The notes beneath the pieces are model-generated. The model was not told the origin of the DNA and made no database searches. It saw only the letters and a program-made list of their open reading frames with translations. From an uncultured Bacteriovoracaceae bacterium (GTDB lineage Bacteria > Bdellovibrionota > UBA1018): a stretch of DNA of 64,000 nucleotides. Within the stretch, counting starts at the first letter, position 1, and each line of letters starts with the position of its first letter. The stretch lies in contig CAZLYB010000004.1 of NCBI GenBank assembly GCA_964563795.1, positions 57,026 to 121,025 of the forward strand. The letters run 5' to 3'. The position numbers and the translations under genes are program-made. Shown piece by piece: positions 3,683 through 34,611 of this stretch.

Positions 3683-5716
3683 ATGACTTGGCAAACCTGG
3701 GCGTTCTTGGCGGTCGCATCCCTCGCGTTCGGTTACTCCAGCTATCGGCTGTCCTTGCTGCTGAAGCTCATGCGGGCGCAAAAGGGGCGCGCGCCGAAGT
3801 ACGGCGACCTCCTCAAGCGCATCGAAACGACGCTGGTGAACGTTCTGGGGCAAAAGGCCGTTCTCAAAAAGCCGGTCGCGGGCATCATGCATGCGACGAT
3901 TTTTTGGGGATTCCTCATCATCTCGGTAGGAACGCTCGAGCAGTTCGTGAGCACGATTTACGCTCCCGCGAACTTTGAGTTCATCGGCCATGGGCCTTAC
4001 CGGGCGCTCGTCGCGATCCAGGATTTTCTCACGCTCGCCGTGCTGCTCGCCGTGGCCTACGCTTTTTACAGGCGCTTAGTGGTGCGCCCCAAGGGGCTCG
4101 GCCATTCGAGCGATGCGATCATCGTGCTGACCCTCACGGGTTCGCTCATGGTTTCCATCCTGCTCATGAATGGCTTCGGAATTTTGGGCCATTCGCCTTG
4201 GTACGCGGGCGCCATGCCGGTTTCAAACGCATTGGCCGGATTGCTCGCTGGATTGGGCTTCAGCGCCGAAACCTCCACGGGGCTTCATACGCTCTTCAAA
4301 TGGGTACATATGCTGATCGTGCTGGGTTTCTCGGTCTATATCCCGAGCTCCAAGCACCTTCACATCTTAGCGGCGGGTCCCAATACCTTTTTAAAACCTC
4401 TCCATCGCGAAAAAGCGATGAGCGTCATTCCTTTTGAGGACGAATCCGTTCAGCAATACGGCGCGGCCAAAGTCACGGACCTGAGCTGGAAGGACACGCT
4501 CGATTACTACGCCTGCACCGAATGCGGGCGCTGCCAGGACCTCTGTCCCGCCTACAACACCGAGAAGCCGCTCTCGCCCAAGAAGCTCATCCTCGATCTC
4601 AAAGAAAACCTCTACCGCAACAAAGCCGCGGCCCTCGCGGGAAAATACGACGAAGTCTCGCACATCATCGATCAGAACGTCACCGAGGACGTGATCTGGG
4701 CATGCACGAGCTGCCGCGCCTGCGAAGTCGCCTGCCCCGTGTTCATCCAGCACACCGATAAGATTTACGACGCCCGCCGTAACTTGGTGCTCATGGAATC
4801 CAAGTTTCCCTCGGAAGTTCAGACCGTCTTCAAGAACATGGAAACCAACGCCACTCCTTGGGCATTCAGCGCCTCGGATCGCGCGGGTTGGGCTGAGGGG
4901 CTGAGCATCCAAACGATGGCGCAAGCCGCTGCGGCAGCGGGTGAATCCAAAGGCGGCGCCGGGGCCACTGGCGCTCCGATCGACGTGCTGCTCTGGGTGG
5001 GCTGCGCGGGCTCCTACGACGACCGCAATAAGAAGGTGCTGCGCGCGTTCGCAAGCACGCTCAACCGAGCGGGCATCAGTTTCGCGATTTTGGGCTCCGA
5101 GGAGCAGTGCACCGGCGATCCCGCGCGGCGCATCGGCAATGAGTACCTCTACCAAACGCTCGCCAAGGCGAACATCGAGACGCTCAACCGCTACGGCGTG
5201 AAACGCGTCGTCACCGCCTGCCCCCACTGCTTCAACACGATCAAGAATGAGTACAAGGATTTTGGGGGGCAGTATGAAGTGTTCCACCACTCCCAGTTCC
5301 TCGCTCAGCTCATTAAGGAAGGCCGCCTGAAACCCGCCGCGGCGACGATGAAGGATTCCGTGACTTTCCATGACAGTTGCTACTTGGGGCGATGGAACAA
5401 CATTTACGACGAACCCCGCGCGTTGATCGCATCCTCCTCAGCTCAGGCCCCCATCGAGATGAAGAGCCATCATGACCAAAGCTTCTGCTGCGGAGCGGGA
5501 GGCGGGAGGATGTGGATGGAGGAGAAAATCGGCAAGCGCGTCAACATCGCACGCACCGAGCAGGCTCTGGCGACTGGCGCCAAGGTGATCGCCTCTTCCT
5601 GCCCGTTCTGCATGACGATGCTCAACGACGGCTTAAAAGCGAAGGATCAGCAGGATCACGTGCGAGTCATGGACATCGCGGAGCTCGTCGATCAAGCGAC
5701 GGCGGGCGGCCCTTAG
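3683..5716 (+). CDS. Etf-associated membrane-bound Fe-S oxidoreductase (heterodisulfide-reductase-like, two CCG domains)
   Basis: The N-terminal region has about 5 TM helices. Two ferredoxin motifs follow (CTECGRCQDLCP and CTSCRACEVACP), then two cysteine-rich CCG-type motifs (CPHCFN, CPFCM). Its position directly after etfBA fits the EtfAB:quinone oxidoreductase family of anaerobes and deltaproteobacteria. Confidence 0.8.
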   Translation: MTWQTWAFLAVASLAFGYSSYRLSLLLKLMRAQKGRAPKYGDLLKRIETTLVNVLGQKAVLKKPVAGIMHATIFWGFLIISVGTLEQFVSTIYAPANFEFIGHGPYRALVAIQDFLTLAVLLAVAYAFYRRLVVRPKGLGHSSDAIIVLTLTGSLMVSILLMNGFGILGHSPWYAGAMPVSNALAGLLAGLGFSAETSTGLHTLFKWVHMLIVLGFSVYIPSSKHLHILAAGPNTFLKPLHREKAMSVIPFEDESVQQYGAAKVTDLSWKDTLDYYACTECGRCQDLCPAYNTEKPLSPKKLILDLKENLYRNKAAALAGKYDEVSHIIDQNVTEDVIWACTSCRACEVACPVFIQHTDKIYDARRNLVLMESKFPSEVQTVFKNMETNATPWAFSASDRAGWAEGLSIQTMAQAAAAAGESKGGAGATGAPIDVLLWVGCAGSYDDRNKKVLRAFASTLNRAGISFAILGSEEQCTGDPARRIGNEYLYQTLAKANIETLNRYGVKRVVTACPHCFNTIKNEYKDFGGQYEVFHHSQFLAQLIKEGRLKPAAATMKDSVTFHDSCYLGRWNNIYDEPRALIASSSAQAPIEMKSHHDQSFCCGAGGGRMWMEEKIGKRVNIARTEQALATGAKVIASSCPFCMTMLNDGLKAKDQQDHVRVMDIAELVDQATAGGP

Positions 5717-6309
5717 CTGGACAGCGAGCGGCACTCGCTGATCAGCGGCAGAAGCCCAGTTTTTTCCGCAGCGGACAAAGCGGCCGCTAGGATGGATTCC
5801 GTGTCTCTCTCTTTCTGGGAGTGAAGTTGGGCCTCAAGCTCAGGCCAATGATCACGAAACGCCATCTCGAATTTCTGGGAAATTTCACCGCTTTTGAATG
5901 CTTTAAACAGCGCGCAGGACTGACCTCGATCGAGGTCTCCCCCACTTCCGAATTTCAGCGTGAGATCAATTTTATCCTGAAAGAACCATGCCGTACCCGC
6001 GGTTATTTTAATCTGAAGGAGAACAGGATCGAAATCGAATTGCAGCCCTCCCTGATCAGCGATCTGGCAGAGGGATTTCTTCAATTGGCCCCTACTAAAA
6101 CCTCGAAGCGGGGTGTAGGCGTCTGATCCGAATTCGCCAGGCTCTTGAAATCCCACCGCCGCTGCGTCGGTAGATTTGAGAAGCAAAAACTGCCCAATGA
6201 TCCCTTGATACGCCCCTTTTTGATAAGCATGGATTCGACAAACCGGCGTCTGATCAGCCCGCGACTGATGATGCATTAAAACGGCGGCCACTAAAACTAG
6301 CCATTTCAT
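5713..6309 (-). CDS. Secreted hypothetical protein (paralog of 6574..7158)
   Basis: The signal peptide is MKWLVLVAAVLMHHQSRA. It shares an N-terminal motif VCRI-x-Y-Q-x-G-(x)-GY/I-x-GQF with the ORF at 6574..7158. Confidence 0.5.
   Translation of the reverse strand: MKWLVLVAAVLMHHQSRADQTPVCRIHAYQKGAYQGIIGQFLLLKSTDAAAVGFQEPGEFGSDAYTPLRGFSRGQLKKSLCQIADQGGLQFDFDPVLLQIKITAGTAWFFQDKIDLTLKFGSGGDLDRGQSCALFKAFKSGEISQKFEMAFRDHWPELEAQLHSQKERDTESILAAALSAAEKTGLLPLISECRSLSS
5722..5740 (+). terminator. Terminator-like hairpin 6 nt after the Fe-S oxidoreductase stop (CAGCGAG-cggca-CTCGCTG); it lies inside the 3' end of the convergent minus-strand gene
   Basis: A perfect 7-bp inverted repeat is seen directly in the sequence. 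No immediate U-tract follows (a T-run begins about 17 nt later). Confidence 0.3.
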
Positions 6310-6323
6310 AAAACCCGATCCGC

Positions 6324-6512
6324 TTATTTTTTGAAGTCCGGCGGCAAGAAATCTTTATGAGCCGCGATGAAACGTTTGAGCGCGGTGTTCGCGAGCTCGG
6401 ATTTGCTGAGCTTGGCGTGTTTTTCCATTTGAGCCAAGATATCGATCACCGTGGATTCAATTTCGATTTCAAGTTTGGAGGTTTTGGCCTTGATTTTATA
6501 GTCGTCTCTCAT
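6324..6512 (-). CDS. Ribbon-helix-helix (CopG/Arc/MetJ-like) small DNA-binding protein
   Basis: The 62-aa protein has a beta-strand with alternating hydrophobics (KLEIEIES), then helix A (VIDILAQMEKHAKL) and helix B (SKSELANTALKRFIAAH). The S-[KR]-SEL-x-x-x-AL-[KR] pattern is typical of RHH antitoxins and regulators. Confidence 0.45.
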   Translation of the reverse strand: MRDDYKIKAKTSKLEIEIESTVIDILAQMEKHAKLSKSELANTALKRFIAAHKDFLPPDFKK

Positions 6513-6573: not shown

Positions 6574-7158
6574 TCACTGCCCACTTTTTTGCTTCAGTAG
6601 CACCGTATTGACCATCCAAGCCAGGGCGTTGGCGTTTAAAAGCGAGCCGACTTGGTTTTGATACGCGCGGATGCTGGAATCGAATTGATCTTGGGAAATA
6701 TTCAGAGTGATCGTCGTCGACTCCTGAAAAATCTTCCTGCACAGGCCGTTTGAAGCCTCCGCTGAGAGCGAGATAGAGTCAGAGGGGATTACATATCCTT
6801 CCTTCGCGATATGACTCACTTTAAACGAAAAAAAAGTCGGCCGGGAACCCTTGGAATTGCTCACATACTCGATGAGGGAAGACGCTCTTCCGCTGCTCTT
6901 CACAGCTCCTGGTGCGCTCTCATAGAGCTTTCTAAGAGCGTCCGCGTTATCTTTGAGACCATGATGTTGACCCGTTTTGAATTCGTCCCGGTTTTGATAT
7001 CGAATGACCCCATGGTCATTAAAAAACTGCCCCACATAACCCGTCGCTGAGCCCTGTTGATACGTGATTCGGCAAACTTCCGTCTCGGCGGAAGCCGCCT
7101 CAAAACCGGAGAGCAAACCCAAAACTAAAACCATCGCTGAAACGCTGTTGCGAAACAT
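6574..7158 (-). CDS. Secreted hypothetical protein (paralog of 5713..6309)
   Basis: It has a signal peptide (MFRNSVSAMVLVLGLLSGFEAASA) and the shared motif EVCRITYQQGSATGYVGQFF. Confidence 0.5.
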   Translation of the reverse strand: MFRNSVSAMVLVLGLLSGFEAASAETEVCRITYQQGSATGYVGQFFNDHGVIRYQNRDEFKTGQHHGLKDNADALRKLYESAPGAVKSSGRASSLIEYVSNSKGSRPTFFSFKVSHIAKEGYVIPSDSISLSAEASNGLCRKIFQESTTITLNISQDQFDSSIRAYQNQVGSLLNANALAWMVNTVLLKQKSGQ

Positions 7159-7218: not shown

Positions 7219-7773
7219 TCAATAGGCCGATCTCCACAACCGCGCCGCCTTGGAAAGACTTAGGAGCGCCGATAAAAGCTGCGAGGGCCGACTTTGCCAG
7301 GCTTCAATGAATTTTCGAGAGGTCCCCATGGAGGGGTCCCACTGAACTTGGAGCGGGAGGGACTCTCGATTCATCAAGCGCTTGCATTCTGGATTTTGGA
7401 AATAAAGTCGCCAATGGAAATCCTGGAAAATATCGAAAAAATGATTTTGAAATTCGGGAGATCCTGGCGTTTCAAAAACGTAAAAATCAAGTTCTTGATG
7501 CGTGGAATAATAAAAGCCCAGCGATTTTGAGAAATCACGCCCCCCTGCCAATGACCCGAGAAATGCGCGGAATCGCTCTTCACCGCGATCTGGCTTGATT
7601 TCGCGAGCGCCGCTCCGTGTCCGCGCCCTGACTTCGTTCTCGCCCTCGAAGAGAACCTCCCCGATGCCCCAATCCACACTGCCTCTCCGGGCGCGAACGG
7701 CGCAGCCCAGCTCAAGAGCATGGACAGGCACCTCCATGGCTAAGATTAAAAATAAAAAAATGAAAGCCTTCAT
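7219..7773 (-). CDS. Secreted hypothetical protein
   Basis: The start was refined to MKAFIFLFLILAMEVPVHA, a classic signal peptide; the longer ORF extends to 7803. No recognisable domain was found. Confidence 0.45.
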   Translation of the reverse strand: MKAFIFLFLILAMEVPVHALELGCAVRARRGSVDWGIGEVLFEGENEVRARTRSGAREIKPDRGEERFRAFLGSLAGGRDFSKSLGFYYSTHQELDFYVFETPGSPEFQNHFFDIFQDFHWRLYFQNPECKRLMNRESLPLQVQWDPSMGTSRKFIEAWQSRPSQLLSALLSLSKAARLWRSAY

Positions 7774-7830
7774 GCTGCATCCCCCCGGGATATTGGCTCT
7801 CAAGAACTCGGCTTGCGCAAGTTTTTTGTG

Positions 7831-8730
7831 TTAGCCCCTGGACCGCCCCCGAATGAGGTCCTTCACCACGCCGTACATCGCCTGAGGCAAGCCTTCGAGC
7901 TCGGCGATTTCCTTGATCGCTCCGTGCCCTCGGCTCGCGAGCTCCCGGCAGAGCGACAGGCTCGCGCGATCGCGGCCCATCTTCATCACCACGAGGTGAT
8001 CGAAGCGCGGGGCGAGGTAAGCGGGATCTCGGCCCGCCGTGTATTTTCCGTCGGTGAGCAGGAGCGTCGACGTGCCCGCTCGCTCGATCAATCGGAGCGC
8101 GGCCTGAAGCCCTTCCTCCAAATGAGTGTACCCTTGGGCAGGAACATCGAGGAACCGCTCCACGAGCTGCTCGATCGTGATCGTCTCGCGGGGTGATTTG
8201 AGCACGCGGGCTTCATTCTCGAAAGCGACGATGCCGACCGGGCTCTCTGGAAACTGCAGCAGCACCACCGCGAGCGCGACCGCCGTCAGCGCGAGCTTCT
8301 CGCCCGTCATCGAAAGGCTCGTGTCCACGCTGAGCACGATCGGGGTTTGCGGCCTCGTCCTGAAACTCACCCAAAGCTCAGGCGCGGCTCCCTTGCCTTG
8401 ACTCAATGCACGGACCCAGAGCGGCGACTCTTCGAGCGTTGCGTCCCAATCCTCTTCTATGTGCGTCGCGCTCTCGGGAACTTCCTCAAACGGAGCAGTG
8501 CCCTCGCGGCTCACATGCACCACCGAACCCAGCACTTCACGCGCCCGCTCCAGCACCGCTTGCGCCGAGACTTCCCGGATGCGCCTCAAGAGCGGGCTCC
8601 ATGCGTAACGCGCCTTCAACTCATGATAACGGATCGCAATGTCCCAGGAACTCGCGCCCCAGAGCTCCTGCTCCGCGAGCGAAGCGGCTTGATCCGCCTC
8701 AGAAATGAGGCTCAATCCTTTTTCATCCAA
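7831..8730 (-). CDS. von Willebrand factor A (VWA) domain protein, CoxE/ViaA-like partner of a MoxR ATPase
   Basis: A MIDAS motif DTSLSMTG (DxSxS) is followed by a hydrophobic beta-strand (LAVVLLQF) and later TD/G motifs. It lies 77 nt downstream of the MoxR-type AAA+ gene. Confidence 0.75.
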   Translation of the reverse strand: MDEKGLSLISEADQAASLAEQELWGASSWDIAIRYHELKARYAWSPLLRRIREVSAQAVLERAREVLGSVVHVSREGTAPFEEVPESATHIEEDWDATLEESPLWVRALSQGKGAAPELWVSFRTRPQTPIVLSVDTSLSMTGEKLALTAVALAVVLLQFPESPVGIVAFENEARVLKSPRETITIEQLVERFLDVPAQGYTHLEEGLQAALRLIERAGTSTLLLTDGKYTAGRDPAYLAPRFDHLVVMKMGRDRASLSLCRELASRGHGAIKEIAELEGLPQAMYGVVKDLIRGRSRG

Positions 8731-8807
8731 AAGCGAATCCAGACTCGAAGGCAGCGTTTCCGGGGCGATGAAAGAGGGCGGGCTCAGGGTGAGTTTTTCA
8801 CGCGCCG

Positions 8808-9707
8808 TCAGATTTTTTTTTTTGAAGCGGCGGGATCCCCCTGAAGCGCCGCCAATGCCAATTCGCGCAGCAAAGCCTTCCGCTCAGCCTCGAGCCCCAG
8901 ATCAGATTCCGAGTCCCGCTCGAATTCAATGCGCGTGGGAAGCGCCATGAAAACCGCCTGCGTGAACGCTTCTTCGAGGGGCTGTCCCCGCGAAAGCAGC
9001 GACTTCGCGATTTCAGCGATGCTGAGCGCTGCCCGGATCGAGGCGCCCCGCTTGATTCGCGGGTGATCGCGCGTCAAGCGCGCCAGATCCACCGAAGCGT
9101 CGATCAATCTCTCTGTCTCCGAGGAGAATCCCGCCGATTTTTTTGATTTTGCGGGAGCCTGAATCTGAGAGGAAACGATCGCCCGTTCCTCCTCGCGCGA
9201 TTGATAATCCAGCAGGATGAGCTCAAAGCGATCCAAAATCGCCTCGCTCAAATGGGAGGTCGCGACGAATTCCTTGGGGTTTTGCGTCGCTATCACGAGG
9301 AAACTCGGCTTCGCGCGGACTGTTCCCAAACGGGGAATCGCGATCACCCGCTCATCGATCGCCGGCAACAAGACGTTCTGAACGCCTTCCGGCAGCCGAT
9401 TCAGCTCGTTGATGAAGAGCACTCCGCCCTGCTTCATCGCCGCCGTCAGCGGCCCATCCACGAAGGAACGGACGCCGTAACCCCGTTTTAAAACCGCCGG
9501 GGGATCGAACCATCCGCTCAGCTTCTGCTCGCTGTAGCGGCTATCCCCATCCACCCGAAACACGGGGCGCTTCAACTCCTCTACGATCGAGAGAGCGAGC
9601 CTCGTCTTTCCGACCCCCACGGGACCCTCGAGCAATACGTTACGCTGAGCGCTCAAGCACGCCCGGACCCACTCCGATTCCCGCTGCCTGCCGATCAATG
9701 CGCTCAT
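8808..9707 (-). CDS. MoxR/CbbQ/NorQ-family AAA+ ATPase (AAA_5)
   Basis: Walker A is LLEGPVGVGKT and Walker B is VLFINELNR. The sensor and lid regions (ATQNP...LDRF) match the MoxR family. Its ATG overlaps the kamE stop (ATGA). Confidence 0.8.
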   Translation of the reverse strand: MSALIGRQRESEWVRACLSAQRNVLLEGPVGVGKTRLALSIVEELKRPVFRVDGDSRYSEQKLSGWFDPPAVLKRGYGVRSFVDGPLTAAMKQGGVLFINELNRLPEGVQNVLLPAIDERVIAIPRLGTVRAKPSFLVIATQNPKEFVATSHLSEAILDRFELILLDYQSREEERAIVSSQIQAPAKSKKSAGFSSETERLIDASVDLARLTRDHPRIKRGASIRAALSIAEIAKSLLSRGQPLEEAFTQAVFMALPTRIEFERDSESDLGLEAERKALLRELALAALQGDPAASKKKI

Positions 9708-10501
9708 GACTTCCCTCGCTTGGTTTTTTTCGCGGGTTTCCGCTTTTTCTTGAGGACTTCCTCGACAATGGCGCTCGCCACTTCAGAGGGCTTGGTCCCC
9801 ACGCCGAATCCCGCGTCATAGCCGCACTCAAGCGCGAGCGCATGCGTCACCCGCGGCCCTCCCGCGATGCAGATCAACTGATCCCGCATCCCGAGCTTCT
9901 CGGCGCGCTGGATGAGGTCTTTTAAATCACGAACGTGTATCCCATGCTGGGTGACGACCTTCGAGATCAAAATCGCGTCCGCCTTCAATTCTTTCGCGCG
10001 CTTCAAGAGCTCCTCGTTCAGGACCTGCGCCCCTAAGTTGCGCGCGTCGAACCCTTCATAGCGCTCCAATCCGTAATCTCCGGCGAAACCCTTCATATTG
10101 ATGATGGCGTCGATCCCCACGGTGTGGGCGTCGTAGCCGGTGCAAGCGCCCAGGACGACGAGCTTGCGGCCAATCTTCTCCCGGATCAAGGCGTCAATCT
10201 CTTCGCGCGAGCGCTTGGGCGCTTCGACTTCGATGGTCTTGATCCGCGTGAAATCCACGCTGTGCTTGAAGTTGGCGTAGATGACGAAAAAAGCGAACCC
10301 CTCGGCCGCCTTCTCCATGGTCGCCACTTTGATTTGGTCGTAGCCCATCTTGGAAACCAGCTGCATTGCCGCTTCCCGCGCGCGAGCGCTGGGCTCGACC
10401 GGCAATGTAAACGCCAGCTGGACAGTCCCGTCGTTCATGATGTCGCCGTAGGGCTTGAGCTTCTTGAGGTCGGCCTTTTGGGTTTTTGATGGCGCGCTCA
10501 T
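9704..10501 (-). CDS. kamE: Lysine 5,6-aminomutase beta subunit (B12-binding)
   Basis: The start was refined to MSAPSKTQKADLKKLKPYGDIMNDGTVQLAFTLP, which is the KamE N-terminal signature. The B12-binding Rossmann region is VVLGACTGYDAHTVGIDAI. The longer ORF in the track has a non-homologous, Arg/Gly-rich N-terminal extension. Its ATG overlaps the kamD stop (ATGA). Confidence 0.85.
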   Translation of the reverse strand: MSAPSKTQKADLKKLKPYGDIMNDGTVQLAFTLPVEPSARAREAAMQLVSKMGYDQIKVATMEKAAEGFAFFVIYANFKHSVDFTRIKTIEVEAPKRSREEIDALIREKIGRKLVVLGACTGYDAHTVGIDAIINMKGFAGDYGLERYEGFDARNLGAQVLNEELLKRAKELKADAILISKVVTQHGIHVRDLKDLIQRAEKLGMRDQLICIAGGPRVTHALALECGYDAGFGVGTKPSEVASAIVEEVLKKKRKPAKKTKRGKS

Positions 10502-12066
10502 AAGAGATCGAAAAACGGGTTGAGATAATCCTGGGCTTTGGGAATCACGCCTTCCAACCCTTTCCCCCCCGTCTCGGCGCGGCTCACTTCCGCGAAGGCT
10601 TTCTCCTCGATCGCCTTGAAGATCCCCTTGGATCGAACCATCTTCAGATGCTCGTGTGTATCCTTGAGCACTTTCTCGGCCCAACCGGAGATGATTCCCC
10701 CGCGCTTGAATTCCACGTCCGACCCCAAGTCCTTCGCGCCCTCGAAGATGAGCTTCGCGTTCTGAATGCTCATCCAACGGTCCTGCAACAGCGGGGTGTG
10801 CATCGCTTCAGTAGGCATCCCCAGCAATTGTATGGTCTGACCGGTGAAAACGCCAACCAGGTTGAACATCGCGTCCATGAGATGGCTATAGAAGATATCG
10901 CCCCTTTTATGGCGGGTGGGCGGCATGAACTTGATGGGGGACTGCGGAAAAATATCGCGCGTCATCTGAGCGCGCGCGATCTCGAGCAGGAACACGTTCG
11001 GGTGCGTGGGATCCATCTCCTGGGCATGCCCCAAACCCATGAGCTCCTCGGTCATCCGCGCGTTCAGAGCCAGTCGCTCGTTGATGAATTGCGAGGCCAG
11101 GACTTGATGGCCGTTCTCCACGGCGTCAGCGGTCGTGAGGTAATTGTCCTCCCCCGTGTGGATGACGATCCGGGAGAGCGCGATGATCCTCCTTGAAAAA
11201 TGCTGATCAACCCAGGTGCGGCGCATATTGATGTCGCGGAACAAAATCCCGTACATCGAATCGTTCAGGAGGAAGTCCAGCCGTTCCATCGCCCCCAAAG
11301 CCGCGATCTCCGGCATGCAGAGCCCAGAGCAATAATTCGTCAGGCGAATGTAGCGACCGAGGCGCCTGGATTCCTCGTCCAAGGCCTCGCGCATAATTTT
11401 GAAGTTTTCCTGGGTGGCGTAAGTTCCCCCAAAGCCTTCCGTCGTCGCGCCGTGCGGGACGAAATCCAGAAGGGATTGCGCAGTGCTTCGAATCACCGCG
11501 ATCGCATCCGCGCCCGCTTGAGCGGCCGCTTTCGCCTGCGTCACATCCTCGAAAATATTGCCGGTGGCGACGATCACGTAAAGGACTGGTCCACCCTTGC
11601 CGGTCGGATCGAAACGATCGCCCAGTTCTTTTCTGAGGGAATCCCTTTTTTCGCGCGCGTGCACCAGGCTTTTAACCGCTCTCTCGCAGAGCTCGTGGGC
11701 TTTCGCCTGAATCACGCCTTTTTCTTGAAGAGGCGCTGCCATCAAGTTAATCTTCCCCAAGGCCGCCGCGTCGGCCAGCTCCTGCGCCGTCATGCGATGA
11801 TGGATCATCGCGCTCACGAAAGGCCTGAGCACCCCGTGATTCAGCTCCCCTGCCTGCCTCAGCTTTTCAACGATCAAGTTCGCTTGGGGGAAGTGCTGCC
11901 CCCCCTTTTCGCGAACCGCGCCGCTCACTCCCAAAAGCCGCAAGGTCGCGCGCTCGATCGCGACGGTCGTGTTGGATTCGATGAGGGCCGAAATGGGGCG
12001 CGTCACTTCCTTCGCCAACGCCCTGCATTCTTGAACTAGAACCGCGTCCAATGCCAAATGCGCCAA
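10498..12066 (-). CDS. kamD: Lysine 5,6-aminomutase alpha subunit
   Basis: The 522-aa length and TIM-barrel subunit fit. The N-terminus (TTVAIERATLRLLGVSGAV) and overall similarity match KamD/OraE-type PLP/B12 aminomutase large subunits. It is adjacent to kamE. Confidence 0.85.
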   Translation of the reverse strand: MAHLALDAVLVQECRALAKEVTRPISALIESNTTVAIERATLRLLGVSGAVREKGGQHFPQANLIVEKLRQAGELNHGVLRPFVSAMIHHRMTAQELADAAALGKINLMAAPLQEKGVIQAKAHELCERAVKSLVHAREKRDSLRKELGDRFDPTGKGGPVLYVIVATGNIFEDVTQAKAAAQAGADAIAVIRSTAQSLLDFVPHGATTEGFGGTYATQENFKIMREALDEESRRLGRYIRLTNYCSGLCMPEIAALGAMERLDFLLNDSMYGILFRDINMRRTWVDQHFSRRIIALSRIVIHTGEDNYLTTADAVENGHQVLASQFINERLALNARMTEELMGLGHAQEMDPTHPNVFLLEIARAQMTRDIFPQSPIKFMPPTRHKRGDIFYSHLMDAMFNLVGVFTGQTIQLLGMPTEAMHTPLLQDRWMSIQNAKLIFEGAKDLGSDVEFKRGGIISGWAEKVLKDTHEHLKMVRSKGIFKAIEEKAFAEVSRAETGGKGLEGVIPKAQDYLNPFFDLL

Positions 12067-12081: not shown

Positions 12082-13128
12082 TCAGGAGTAGTGCTTGAGA
12101 AAAAGCTGCCGAAGCTCGTCGCTCTCGCGGAGCAGGTTCAGCGCGAGCTCCGCGTGCCCGTCAGCGTAGCCGTTTCCGATCCTGAGATCAATGTCGCAGC
12201 CCACCCCCTCCGCGCCCAGGGCAGCTCGAGTGAATTGGGTCGCCATGCTGAAAAAATAGACGATTCCCCGGCTGCGGCACGCCAGGATCGAAGCCATCTC
12301 AGTCCCGGGGAGATTGGTCACATTGATGACCAGATTCCCCATGTAGCCGCGGGTGGTGTTCCAAACGCGATCCATCACCTCCATGGCGTTTCTCGCGTCA
12401 GCTTGGATCACTTCATCCACGAAGGAGAGGTTGGAAAGCCGATCCAGCGCCTCGCGCGAAAAATCGATGGCGATGGTGCGAACCCCGGATTTTTTCTTCG
12501 CTTCGTAAAGGCAGAGGACCCCCGATTTCCCGCCTCCGCCGATGACGATCACGGTCTGACCTTCCTGGGTCAGGCGCTGCGTTTGCGCGGGAGCTCCCGC
12601 CACGTCCAGGACCGCCAGCGATACGCGTTCGGGAAGATCATCCGGAAGGCGGGCGAAGACTCCCGAGGCGAAAAGGACGGCATGGCCTTCGATGTCCACG
12701 CGCTCCGTTGAAAGATGGATTTTTTTGATCTTCTTGATTTTCAGCGGCGTCAGCGAAAGCGAGACCATCGTCGCGATTCGATCGCCGATCCGAACCGGTT
12801 TTTGATCGAAGGGAAATGACGGTCCCAACTCGGCGACGGTCCCGATCAGCATGCCCCCGGAACCCGTGACCGGGTTATGCATCTTGCCCTGCTCATTCAC
12901 GAGCTGCTCGATATGAGCCGCGATCCGAACCGGATCATCCTGGCAGTGCTCCCGGATCTGCCGAAAACTCGCCGAATCGATGTTGAGGCTTTCAACGTCG
13001 ATGAGCATTTCATCCTGAGCCAGGGTGAGCGAGGAGTCCAATGCGGCCGCTTGCTGGGGAAGCACGCCTTTCGGCTTCAAGACTCTCTGCAACCCAAAAG
13101 GATCCGCCGCGCGATAAGTGCTAACCAT
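12082..13128 (-). CDS. kdd: Putative L-erythro-3,5-diaminohexanoate dehydrogenase (Kdd-like NAD(P) dehydrogenase)
   Basis: The Rossmann motif is VIVIGGGGKSGVLCLYEA. About 348 aa after refining the start to MVSTYRA. Its position directly upstream of kamDE matches lysine-fermentation operons. Family assignment rests on context and length. Confidence 0.55.
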   Translation of the reverse strand: MVSTYRAADPFGLQRVLKPKGVLPQQAAALDSSLTLAQDEMLIDVESLNIDSASFRQIREHCQDDPVRIAAHIEQLVNEQGKMHNPVTGSGGMLIGTVAELGPSFPFDQKPVRIGDRIATMVSLSLTPLKIKKIKKIHLSTERVDIEGHAVLFASGVFARLPDDLPERVSLAVLDVAGAPAQTQRLTQEGQTVIVIGGGGKSGVLCLYEAKKKSGVRTIAIDFSREALDRLSNLSFVDEVIQADARNAMEVMDRVWNTTRGYMGNLVINVTNLPGTEMASILACRSRGIVYFFSMATQFTRAALGAEGVGCDIDLRIGNGYADGHAELALNLLRESDELRQLFLKHYS

Positions 13129-14218
13129 TCCGTTTTTTCCGAGCTTTTTCGACCCTCTCTTCAGCCATGTGGTCCGCGACCTCAGAAGAGGGTTTTTGAG
13201 CGCGCTCGGAACGCTCCAGGATTTCCGTAATCGTCTTTTCGATTTTAGAAACATGCTCGTAAGCTTGCGTTTTTTGATACGATTTCGCCCCGCTCGCGGG
13301 ATGCTCGTAATAAATATTGATCAGGCCCCCGGCGTTGAGCACGTAATCCGGGGCGTAGCAGATGCCACGCTTCAGGAGTTCATAACCATCTTCTGGCGTC
13401 GCGAGCTGATTGTTCGCCCCTCCGGCGATCACCTTGGCGCGAATGCGGGGCAGAGTCTTGGAATTGATGCTCGCTCCCAGCGCGCAGGGCGAAAAAACGT
13501 CGCAAGAAACGTCATAAATCGCCTCGGGCTTCACCACTTCGATCGAAGGGTATTTTTCCTTGGCCCGCTTCACCATTTCAGCGTCAATGTCACAAGCGGT
13601 GATCACCGCTCCCTCGCGGGCCAAATGCTCCAATAAATAATAGGCGACGCTCCCCAAACCTTGAACGGCGACCCGAACCCCTGAGAGGGTGCGCTTCCCG
13701 TTCACCTTTTGCGCGCAAGCGAGCAGACCGTGATACACGCCGTAAGCGGTCGCGGGCGAGGGATCTCCGCTCGACTCGCTCAGGCCCTCAATCCCGAGGA
13801 CGTGAGTCGTCGCTTTCTTCACTTCCTTCAAATCCTCGGAGCCGATCCCCACGTCTTTCGCCGTGATATAGGTGCCTCCCAACGTTTCAACGAACCGGCC
13901 AAAGCGCTGGAGCATGGCGGGATTCTTTTTCGTCTTGGGATCGCCGATCAGAACGGACTTTCCCCCGCCCCAATTCAGTCCCGCGAGCGCGGCTTTGTAA
14001 GTCATTCCCTTAGAGAGGCGCAGCACATCCGTCAAAGCATCGCCCTCTGACGCGTAGTCATACATGCGGCAACCGCCCGTCGCGGCTCCCAATGCGGTCG
14101 AATGTACCGCGATGATCGCTTTCAGCCCGGTCGAACGATCCTGGCAATAAACGACTTGCTCAAAATCTTCGTTTTTGAGGCGCTCGAAAAGAGGCGCCAT
14201 AGAAGGTGCTGGATTCAT
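13121..14218 (-). CDS. Glu/Leu/Phe/Val dehydrogenase family protein (leucine/phenylalanine dehydrogenase-like)
   Basis: The catalytic motif LNWGGGKSVLIGDP is present, with a C-terminal NAD Rossmann (VAVQGLGSVAYYL). The length is 365 aa. It overlaps the kdd start by 8 nt. Confidence 0.8.
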   Translation of the reverse strand: MNPAPSMAPLFERLKNEDFEQVVYCQDRSTGLKAIIAVHSTALGAATGGCRMYDYASEGDALTDVLRLSKGMTYKAALAGLNWGGGKSVLIGDPKTKKNPAMLQRFGRFVETLGGTYITAKDVGIGSEDLKEVKKATTHVLGIEGLSESSGDPSPATAYGVYHGLLACAQKVNGKRTLSGVRVAVQGLGSVAYYLLEHLAREGAVITACDIDAEMVKRAKEKYPSIEVVKPEAIYDVSCDVFSPCALGASINSKTLPRIRAKVIAGGANNQLATPEDGYELLKRGICYAPDYVLNAGGLINIYYEHPASGAKSYQKTQAYEHVSKIEKTITEILERSERAQKPSSEVADHMAEERVEKARKKRNG

Positions 14219-34401: not shown

Positions 34402-34611
34402 ATGGCTACCGGTTTAGTGAAATGGTTTAATGACAGCAAGGGCTATGGCTTTATCCGCACCGAAGATACGGAGCGGGATATCTTCGTCCACTACAGCGCG
34501 ATCCAGGGCGACGGGTTCAAGACTCTCGTCGAAGGACAGCGCGTCGAGTTCGAGCTTGTGGATGGCCCGAAGGGCCCTCAAGCCTCGAACGTTTTCAAAA
34601 CGCCGCAATAA
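34402..34611 (+). CDS. cspA: Cold-shock protein (CspA family)
   Basis: The motifs [12 protein letters not shown] and VHYSAI are RNP1/RNP2. The length is 69 aa. An AAGGGGG ribosome-binding site is present. Confidence 0.9.

Follow-up and report, generated by a model that had tools for sequence, protein, structure and literature searches.

Background

B12 radical enzymes undergo self-inactivation and rely on dedicated factors for their repair or loading. DdrAB/PduGH, EutA, GlmL/MutL and MeaB provide nucleotide-driven release or exchange of cobalamin from the inactivated enzyme. Here we describe a pair of genes, encoding a MoxR-type AAA+ ATPase and a VWA protein with a metal-ion-dependent adhesion site (MIDAS), that lies directly behind kamD and kamE, the genes of the B12- and pyridoxal phosphate (PLP)-dependent lysine 5,6-aminomutase (5,6-LAM), in an uncultured Bacteriovoracaceae bacterium (GenBank assembly GCA_964563795.1, contig CAZLYB010000004.1, positions 57,026 to 121,025). 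This 64,000-nucleotide (nt) stretch is referred to as the window, and all coordinates without a locus number refer to it. We lean towards the view that the pair is a NorQ/NorD- or CbbQ/CbbO-like remodeller of KamD2E2 which replaces KamB/KamC as reactivase or cofactor-exchange factor. The job proposed for MoxR-VWA is thus shared with DdrAB/PduGH, EutA, GlmL/MutL and MeaB, although those belong to different protein families (ASKHA-type or G-protein), and Pfam detected no domain of either type in the MoxR or VWA protein.

To our knowledge, most MoxR ATPases are without a known function. NorQ/NorD, which acts in nitric oxide reductase maturation, resembles the present pair in placing a single-module AAA_5 MoxR protein beside a VWA/MIDAS adaptor and a client gene. 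Its client, however, is a relative of the haem-copper oxidases and not a B12/PLP aminomutase; the adaptor of the window is a 299-aa protein with a short helical N-terminal part, the Walker B motif of its ATPase reads N-E, and sequence similarity to NorQ reaches only E 5.6e-14. NorQ/NorD and CoxD/CoxE serve cofactor insertion rather than repair. CbbQ/CbbO, by contrast, releases Rubisco from a tightly bound inhibitory ligand. It too consists of a MoxR hexamer and a VWA adaptor, and CbbQ (6l1q, 5c3c) strongly matches the model of the MoxR protein, but client and ligand differ, no sequence-level orthology was found (E 6e-11), and CbbO is several times larger than a 299-aa adaptor. Midasin (Rea1) provides the best sequence match to MoxR in its AAA modules and the top structural match to the adaptor in its MIDAS domain, yet it is a giant protein with six AAA modules that serves ribosome biogenesis, as opposed to one AAA module with a separate small adaptor.

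On the side of the client, the closest system is KamB/KamC. NCBIfam names NF052386 'lysine 5,6-aminomutase reactivase subunit KamB' and NF052383 'reactivase ATPase KamC'; the former lacks any Pfam domain, and the latter is a MutS-domain-V ATPase. These are the genes drawn as 'HP' and 'mutS' in published lysine-fermentation clusters (PMC3149608). They agree with earlier biochemical work, in which 5,6-LAM is reported to require a reactivating partner that depends on ATP, 'E2' (PMC9081730). Neither the experimental basis of the two names nor a solved structure of KamB or KamC was found in our search. Like MoxR-VWA, KamB/KamC has lysine 5,6-aminomutase as its client, is encoded right beside kamDE and includes an ATPase, and the two distributions are mutually exclusive. 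The two systems are nevertheless unrelated in sequence and fold, with KamBC upstream of kamD and MoxR-VWA downstream of kamE, and neither the MoxR nor the VWA protein matched NF052386 or NF052383.

Results

The pair occupies the end of a run of six co-directional minus-strand genes with minimal spacing (14218-7831), in the order ELFV-family (Glu/Leu/Phe/Val) dehydrogenase, kdd, kamD, kamE, MoxR and VWA. The kamD gene (10498-12066, minus strand) scores 740 bits with Pfam Lys-AminoMut_A and 740 bits with NCBIfam Lys_5_6_mutase (cut-off 600), and its product matches solved 5,6-LAM at E 1.8e-172 (PDB 9q1a/8t0v) and E 1.2e-167 (1xrs). The kamE gene (9704-10501, minus strand) encodes OAM_dimer and B12-binding domains and scores 344 bits with NCBIfam Lys_5_6_beta (cut-off 280); DAHTVG, the DxHxxG B12-binding motif, and INMKG, with the PLP lysine, were seen by eye. 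With both equivalog cut-offs passed and the B12-binding motif and PLP lysine present, KamDE is classed from its sequence as a lysine 5,6-aminomutase. The MoxR gene (8808-9707, minus strand) encodes a 299-aa AAA+ ATPase (AAA_5, 87.8 bits against a cut-off of 22), and the VWA gene (7831-8730, minus strand), which starts with TTG at 8730, encodes a VWA/MIDAS adaptor, likewise of 299 aa (VWA_2, 39.7 bits against a cut-off of 27). Direct reading of the sequence places an ATGA overlap of kamD stop and kamE start at 10501-10498, a second ATGA overlap of kamE stop and MoxR start at 9707-9704, and a gap of 77 nt between the MoxR stop (8808-8810) and the VWA TTG (8730). A first-pass annotation of this DNA had named the same genes, which the Pfam, NCBIfam and solved-structure matches bear out, and had correctly reported both consecutive 4-nt overlaps and the 77-nt spacing on one strand; the operon reaches two genes (kdd and the ELFV dehydrogenase) further upstream than it had drawn.

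Conservation of this arrangement was examined in two surveys, whose loci are cited by number (L). In the first, an alignment of KamD was searched against one genome per GTDB species, yielding at least 595 loci, of which the best 80 were retrieved together with flanks of 10 kb. In the second, an alignment of MoxR orthologues was searched against JGI metagenome contigs, yielding at least 533 relatives, of which the best 80 were likewise fetched. Six of the KamD-seeded loci came from Bdellovibrionota, Oligoflexia or a 'Deltaproteobacteria' metagenome-assembled genome (MAG). In all six, MoxR stood right after kamE and was followed by VWA wherever the contig extended (the contig of L007 stops inside MoxR). 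The remaining 74 loci, from Bacillota, Bacteroidota, Fusobacteriota, Thermotogota, Asgard archaea and others, had no MoxR or VWA homologue within 10 kb (0/74). In 52 of these 74, kamB and kamC were found immediately upstream of kamD, and in 7 more, one of the two; KamC lay directly upstream of kamD in 52/55 loci. At the partnerless KamD loci no third type of accessory was recognized among the neighbors, which encoded a CoA-transferase, glycosidase, tRNA synthetase or transposase.

The same division appeared in a midpoint-rooted neighbor-joining tree of 103 KamD sequences, built without bootstrap. One clade was linked to MoxR-VWA in 29/29 loci and to KamB or KamC in 0/29; in the other, KamB and/or KamC accompanied 59/74 loci, neither partner was present in 15/74, and MoxR-VWA in 0/74. 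The split is backed by 14 clade-specific positions in KamD (among them Q321 and R365, where 100% of the other clade has T and Q, respectively) and by a 6-residue insertion (151-156) that marks the MoxR-linked clade, the KamD of the window included. MoxR-linked KamE proteins have clade-specific residues of their own (D142, K181, D192 and P238) and a basic, Lys/Arg-rich C-terminal tail. The neighborhood survey thus places MoxR-VWA after kamE throughout one deep KamDE clade and nowhere in the other. Neither a general absence of the pair from kamDE nor a closely related kamDE locus lacking it was encountered.

Of the 80 MoxR-seeded loci, 28 had kamE and 2 an ELFV gene without kdd-kamDE immediately upstream, 11 adjoined genes for MttB-family methyltransferases and/or corrinoid proteins, 6 adjoined polyamine genes and 15 stood in other contexts, with 18 having no upstream sequence. 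Because the kamE-MoxR junction measured between -20 and +14 nt in 38/38 loci from all sources, 24 of which had a 4-nt NTGA overlap, the overlaps exceed chance. Seven basal loci (L119, L125, L126, L130, L133, L143 and L155), whose KamD is about 52-60% identical to that of the window, contain only kamD-kamE-MoxR-VWA, with no kdd or ELFV gene, and are surrounded by genes for a response regulator, PilZ, subtilase or CAAX protease. A kce gene follows the VWA gene in L010-L012 and L108, and stands about 2 kb further on in L123. Going by these neighborhoods, kamD-kamE-MoxR-VWA appears to be one unit, which in some loci is embedded among the other pathway genes and in others stands apart from them. 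No kamA was found near MoxR-linked kamDE (the window; L001-L012, L088-L155), and kce was found in some loci only; in the KamBC clade, kamA is usually two genes upstream of kamD. KamA, KamB, KamC and Kce were all undetectable by tblastn in the 64-kb window. An OraE-like gene was found in 0/80 MoxR-seeded loci, where the sole weak KamE-like matches (31-34% identity) were corrinoid proteins; oraSE neighborhoods were not surveyed separately.

Two further observations concern the KamD loci. A PilZ gene lies upstream of kamD in L133 (6913-7578), L125 and L119, which are minimal MoxR-linked modules, and downstream of kamE in Brachyspira loci with neither accessory (L031, 13468-14706). Since these two settings are unrelated, the recurrence of PilZ beside kamDE hints at some connection with c-di-GMP signaling. 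KamD homologues with no detectable adjacent KamE were seen in L025, L043, L065, L046, L053 and L083, from Chloroflexia, some Bacteroidales and a Myxococcales MAG, and could represent split clusters or a different enzyme.

The product of the MoxR gene is a single-module AAA_5 MoxR ATPase of the CbbQ/NorQ/GvpN-like group. Walker A (GPVGVGKT), ATQNP, LDRFE and RGASIRA are invariant throughout the family, and sensor 1, arginine finger and sensor 2 are canonical. Walker B is a variant, FINELNR (residues 97-104, window about 9398-9419), in which N-E replaces D-E; F-I-N-E aligns with L-D-E of midasin, so that the glutamate is kept while the canonical hhhhDE pattern is broken. N-E was found in 91/91 sampled family members and in the closest 60 or so representatives. 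The next family out, comprising split and fused MoxR/VWA proteins, has E-E, and few of the 150 closest representatives (P0241-P0390) have D-E. The MoxR protein is not a member of the GvpN (89.9 bits against 266.8), MadB (59 against 475), CobS (26.5 against 558.55) or BchI/D equivalogs, and its relatives score likewise; neither MoxR, VWA nor the fused or distant relatives reach the cut-off of any curated NCBIfam family. The model of MoxR (pLDDT 91.9) has NorQ as its top Foldseek match (E 9e-19, TM 0.79 on target, 27% identity), from the 2026 NorQ-NorD complexes (PDB 9qh4-9qhg), followed by CbbQ. By sequence, the closest solved proteins are the midasin AAA modules (E 7.6e-37), then NorQ, CbbQ and CobS.

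In the VWA protein, which is encoded beside the ATPase, about 120 aa of helical N-terminal sequence precede a VWA fold whose MIDAS (DxSxS...T...D) is complete. The MIDAS residues (D136, S138, S140, T202 and D227) do not vary among 37 orthologues. The model of the protein (pLDDT 89.9) has the Rea1 MIDAS domain as the top Foldseek match, with the VWA domain of NorD from the NorQD complexes among the top matches. The protein had been described as CoxE/ViaA-like, a label that its VWA_CoxE score does not support (22.5 bits, under the 26.4 cut-off); the kinship of the pair with CoxE/ViaA or CobS/CobT gives way to NorQ/NorD and CbbQ by structure and to midasin by sequence.

A search of 1.84 billion representative proteins returned 252 at E <= 1e-30 to MoxR, and eukaryotic midasins are among the closest representatives. 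In about half of these relatives the ATPase and VWA parts are fused in one protein of about 600 aa, and the fusions therefore provide independent confirmation that both proteins work together. Within the family carrying the N-E Walker B, the two parts are separate proteins in Bdellovibrionota-like bacteria and a single fusion in Methanomethylicia, Bathyarchaeia and other groups; sources of the fused protein include Ca. Methanomethylicia, Bathyarchaeia, Methylarchaceae and Nitrososphaerales. The fused gene stands inside islands of corrinoid methyltransferases in 11 metagenome loci and in 3/6 additional look-ups, often with MTTB directly upstream. Other genes near it encode DUF2284, corrinoid proteins (B12-binding + B12-binding_2), MtmB, MtrH, URO-D-type methyltransferases, RACo and CdhD. 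This link to corrinoid islands is recurrent and not universal, as other family members adjoin polyamine or housekeeping genes, and it could partly be background, since such archaea carry many methyltransferase paralogues.

The gene order MTTB, DUF2284, fused MoxR~VWA recurs in L135, L122, L160, L171, L174 and L175. We know of no characterization of DUF2284. L174 is the fullest island, with LarA-like, URO-D, RACo, MtmB, corrinoid protein and CdhD genes also present. A sub-branch of the fused proteins (L110-L113, L127, L136 and L140) is set among polyamine-related genes, without an evident connection to B12, and is flanked by histidine kinase/GNAT genes on one side and, on the other, by genes for a pyruvoyl arginine decarboxylase, deoxyhypusine synthase and class III aminotransferase.

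The first two genes of the operon are also on the minus strand. The ELFV dehydrogenase gene (13121-14218; Pfam ELFV_dehydrog_N and ELFV_dehydrog) has Trp_DH_ScyB (tryptophan dehydrogenase) as its top NCBIfam match, at 353 bits below the 600 cut-off, and is kept at this operon position in closer relatives; as an alpha-amino-acid dehydrogenase, its product could use 2,5-diaminohexanoate. Its stop overlaps the start of kdd (12082-13128), which encodes L-erythro-3,5-diaminohexanoate dehydrogenase (NCBIfam Lys_ferment_KDD, 255 bits against a cut-off of 200). The likely kdd start is the ATG at 13128, the family match beginning at residue 54 of the longest open reading frame (ORF). A promoter-like site lies upstream of the operon on the minus strand (14358-14329, consensus match only), and no terminator-like site was found on the minus strand within the operon. 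An Rfam scan gave zero matches in the window, which therefore contains no cobalamin riboswitch.

At 6339-6512 (minus strand) and in relatives (L001:10525-10728, L004:9976-10167, L006:2085-2270 and L167:10929-11126) there is a conserved, ribbon-helix-helix-like ORF of about 60 aa (...ELANTALKRFISSHKDFLPP). In the relatives it follows the VWA gene, also where the ELFV gene is present without kdd-kamDE; in the window, inserted genes lie between. It might be a regulator of the operon. The insertion downstream of the VWA gene, relative to the relatives, consists of genes for three tandem proteins of about 195 aa (5713-6309, 6574-7158 and 7219-7803, minus strand) with signal-peptide-like N-termini and no Pfam match, two of which are detectably paralogous (32% identity over 66 aa). 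On the other side, about 20 kb of large ORFs (about 14200-34400; up to 1478 aa), mostly without a Pfam match, separate the operon from a cold-shock gene (34402-34608) and an AST cluster, a space that is filled in relatives by a single gene of about 660-710 aa. A low-GC segment at 31.6-34.2 kb (GC 0.43-0.49) encodes an 869-aa AAA+ protein.

Discussion

One deep KamDE clade carries MoxR-VWA and the other carries KamBC, and non-orthologous displacement is the most economical reading of this distribution. Established gene identities, a tight and conserved linkage, exclusion of kamBC and structural likeness to NorQ/NorD and CbbQ together underlie the role that we favor for the pair, that of a KamD2E2 remodeller in place of KamB/KamC. 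Judged from sequence and genomic context, MoxR-VWA probably represents a new type of B12-enzyme helper. Remodellers of the MoxR-VWA kind and reactivases of B12 enzymes are each known, and their combination would be new. The first-pass annotation had held that no such pair is described for a 5,6-aminomutase, and our literature search, which left most subscription journals outside, likewise found no link between MoxR/VWA and aminomutases or cobalamin enzymes. Its proposal of a new reactivation, cofactor-loading or assembly module for KamDE is supported as far as the linkage goes. The supposed empty slot is not there: since KamB/KamC is the named partner of canonical kamDE, what is at issue is the displacement of a known reactivase.

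The client, contact and type of reaction are what we infer from the genomic evidence, and the following mechanism would account for them. The MIDAS site of the VWA protein would dock on KamDE, with the clade-specific acidic residues D142 and D192 of KamE, or the KamD insertion at 151-156, as candidate contacts. The MoxR hexamer would then pull on the adaptor-client complex with ATP, which may part the B12-binding Rossmann domain from the TIM barrel at their interface, so that suicide-damaged cobalamin could leave and fresh adenosylcobalamin bind, by analogy with the action of CbbQO on Rubisco. By this comparison, CbbQ/CbbO would be the closest mechanistic analogy to the removal of dead cobalamin.

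Several findings weigh against replacement of KamB/KamC by the pair. In L004/L005, L167-170, L098 and probably L157, MoxR-VWA comes right after the ELFV gene; synteny is otherwise preserved in the flanks, and precisely kdd-kamD-kamE is gone. These loci are nested inside the Kam-linked clade of the neighbor-joining MoxR tree and therefore represent secondary losses, at least two of them independent. Between L004 and L167 (dS 0.74-0.94), dN/dS is 0.027 for MoxR and 0.023 for VWA, values similar to the 0.014 of the neighboring dehydrogenase, and the MIDAS motif is intact, so the pair is still under strong purifying selection there with no kamDE beside it. Either these genomes carry kamDE at another site, or the pair has further clients. 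It is mainly these loci that keep our confidence in the favored role at a slight leaning. Of the earlier claim that the pair is tied to KamDE, then, the conserved linkage stands and exclusive dedication is not supported, as at least two lineages retain ELFV-MoxR-VWA without kdd-kamDE; as far as gene order can tell, the pair is not strictly tied to an adjacent aminomutase. On the same side of the balance are the N-E in place of D-E in Walker B, the midpoint-rooted neighbor-joining KamD and MoxR trees without bootstrap support, and the 15/74 loci of the KamBC clade with neither partner within 10 kb, from which it follows that co-location with a reactivase is not obligatory. The absence of kamBC, moreover, covers the flanks and this 64-kb window, and whole genomes were not searched.

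Among the alternatives, the one that survives best is that the pair is a dedicated accessory of KamDE other than a reactivase, acting in the loading of adenosylcobalamin or PLP, in alpha2beta2 assembly, or in the ATP-dependent regulation with which E2 has historically been credited. We regard this as rather unlikely, although it shares the whole of the linkage evidence with the reactivase role and draws on the structural likeness to NorQ/NorD, whose role is cofactor insertion. The fused protein of the sister clade adjoins RACo, already a supplier of reductive reactivation, which suggests another step there, such as corrinoid loading. Against it, the pair occupies the slot of KamBC, a reactivase according to NCBIfam, and the equally close analogue CbbQ/CbbO truly reactivates an inhibited enzyme. 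Loading or assembly cannot be separated from exchange or repair by sequence data.

The ELFV-MoxR-VWA loci that occur without kdd-kamDE in several lineages, with purifying selection in the one measured, also fit a general MoxR-VWA chaperone whose client is not, or not only, KamDE, for example the ELFV dehydrogenase or other B12 proteins, with the position after kamE being inherited synteny. The lack of a nearby B12 gene in 3/6 of the extra fused look-ups and in many metagenome loci, and the fused sub-branch beside polyamine genes, point the same way. This explanation is nonetheless unlikely in our estimation: the deep-branching loci without ELFV keep the kamD-kamE-MoxR-VWA unit in unrelated surroundings, the start/stop overlap with kamE is conserved, the mutual exclusion with kamBC is complete in our sample, and the ELFV-only loci, being nested in the Kam-linked clade, are secondary losses.

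We consider it very improbable that the pair belongs to a MoxR-vWA-beta-propeller conflict or defense system, or to another mobile module, and stands beside kamDE by chance. A weak match to Pfam bpMoxR (16.9 bits, E 0.0034) and a WD40 protein two genes downstream in L155 could be read in this sense, but the former is under the 27-bit cut-off, PADLOC gave only weak generic P-loop matches, no propeller gene adjoins the pair in the window, where the nearest (DUF5122) are about 47 kb off, and the position of the pair is stable across a deep clade; the defense reading was rejected. A CobS/CobT-like chelatase motor for cobalamin biosynthesis, suggested by CobS/CobT being likewise an AAA_5 and VWA pair and by weak NCBIfam matches to CobS (26.5 bits) and putative cobaltochelatase, was rejected as scarcely credible, as both scores are far under the cut-offs (558 and 779 bits), no CobN or other B12 biosynthesis gene was found among the window ORFs scanned with Pfam (a scan that was not exhaustive), and the structural neighbors of MoxR are NorQ and CbbQ.

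A broader idea, which we offer tentatively and with less conviction than the KamDE role, is that the MoxR/VWA family with the N-E Walker B is an unrecognized class of ATP-driven chaperones for proteins with Rossmann-type B12-binding domains, loading or exchanging the corrinoid in two enzyme systems that are unrelated to each other, the adenosylcobalamin aminomutase KamDE and the MttB/MtmB-type corrinoid methyltransferases.

Conclusions

DdrAB, EutA, MeaB and KamBC have each been informative on how a tightly bound cofactor is exchanged. If replacement of KamB/KamC by MoxR-VWA proves true, the pair would be an independent evolutionary solution to B12 cofactor exchange, and the MoxR ATPases would gain a defined, assayable client. 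The use of 5,6-LAM is limited by rapid suicide inactivation; co-expression of the pair could stabilize the enzyme, which would be useful for making beta- and diamino acids. The same role would explain how lineages without KamBC keep their 5,6-aminomutase active, and the recurrence of the fused sister clade in the corrinoid methyltransferase islands of methylotrophic archaea suggests that the idea may reach a second, ecologically important B12 system.

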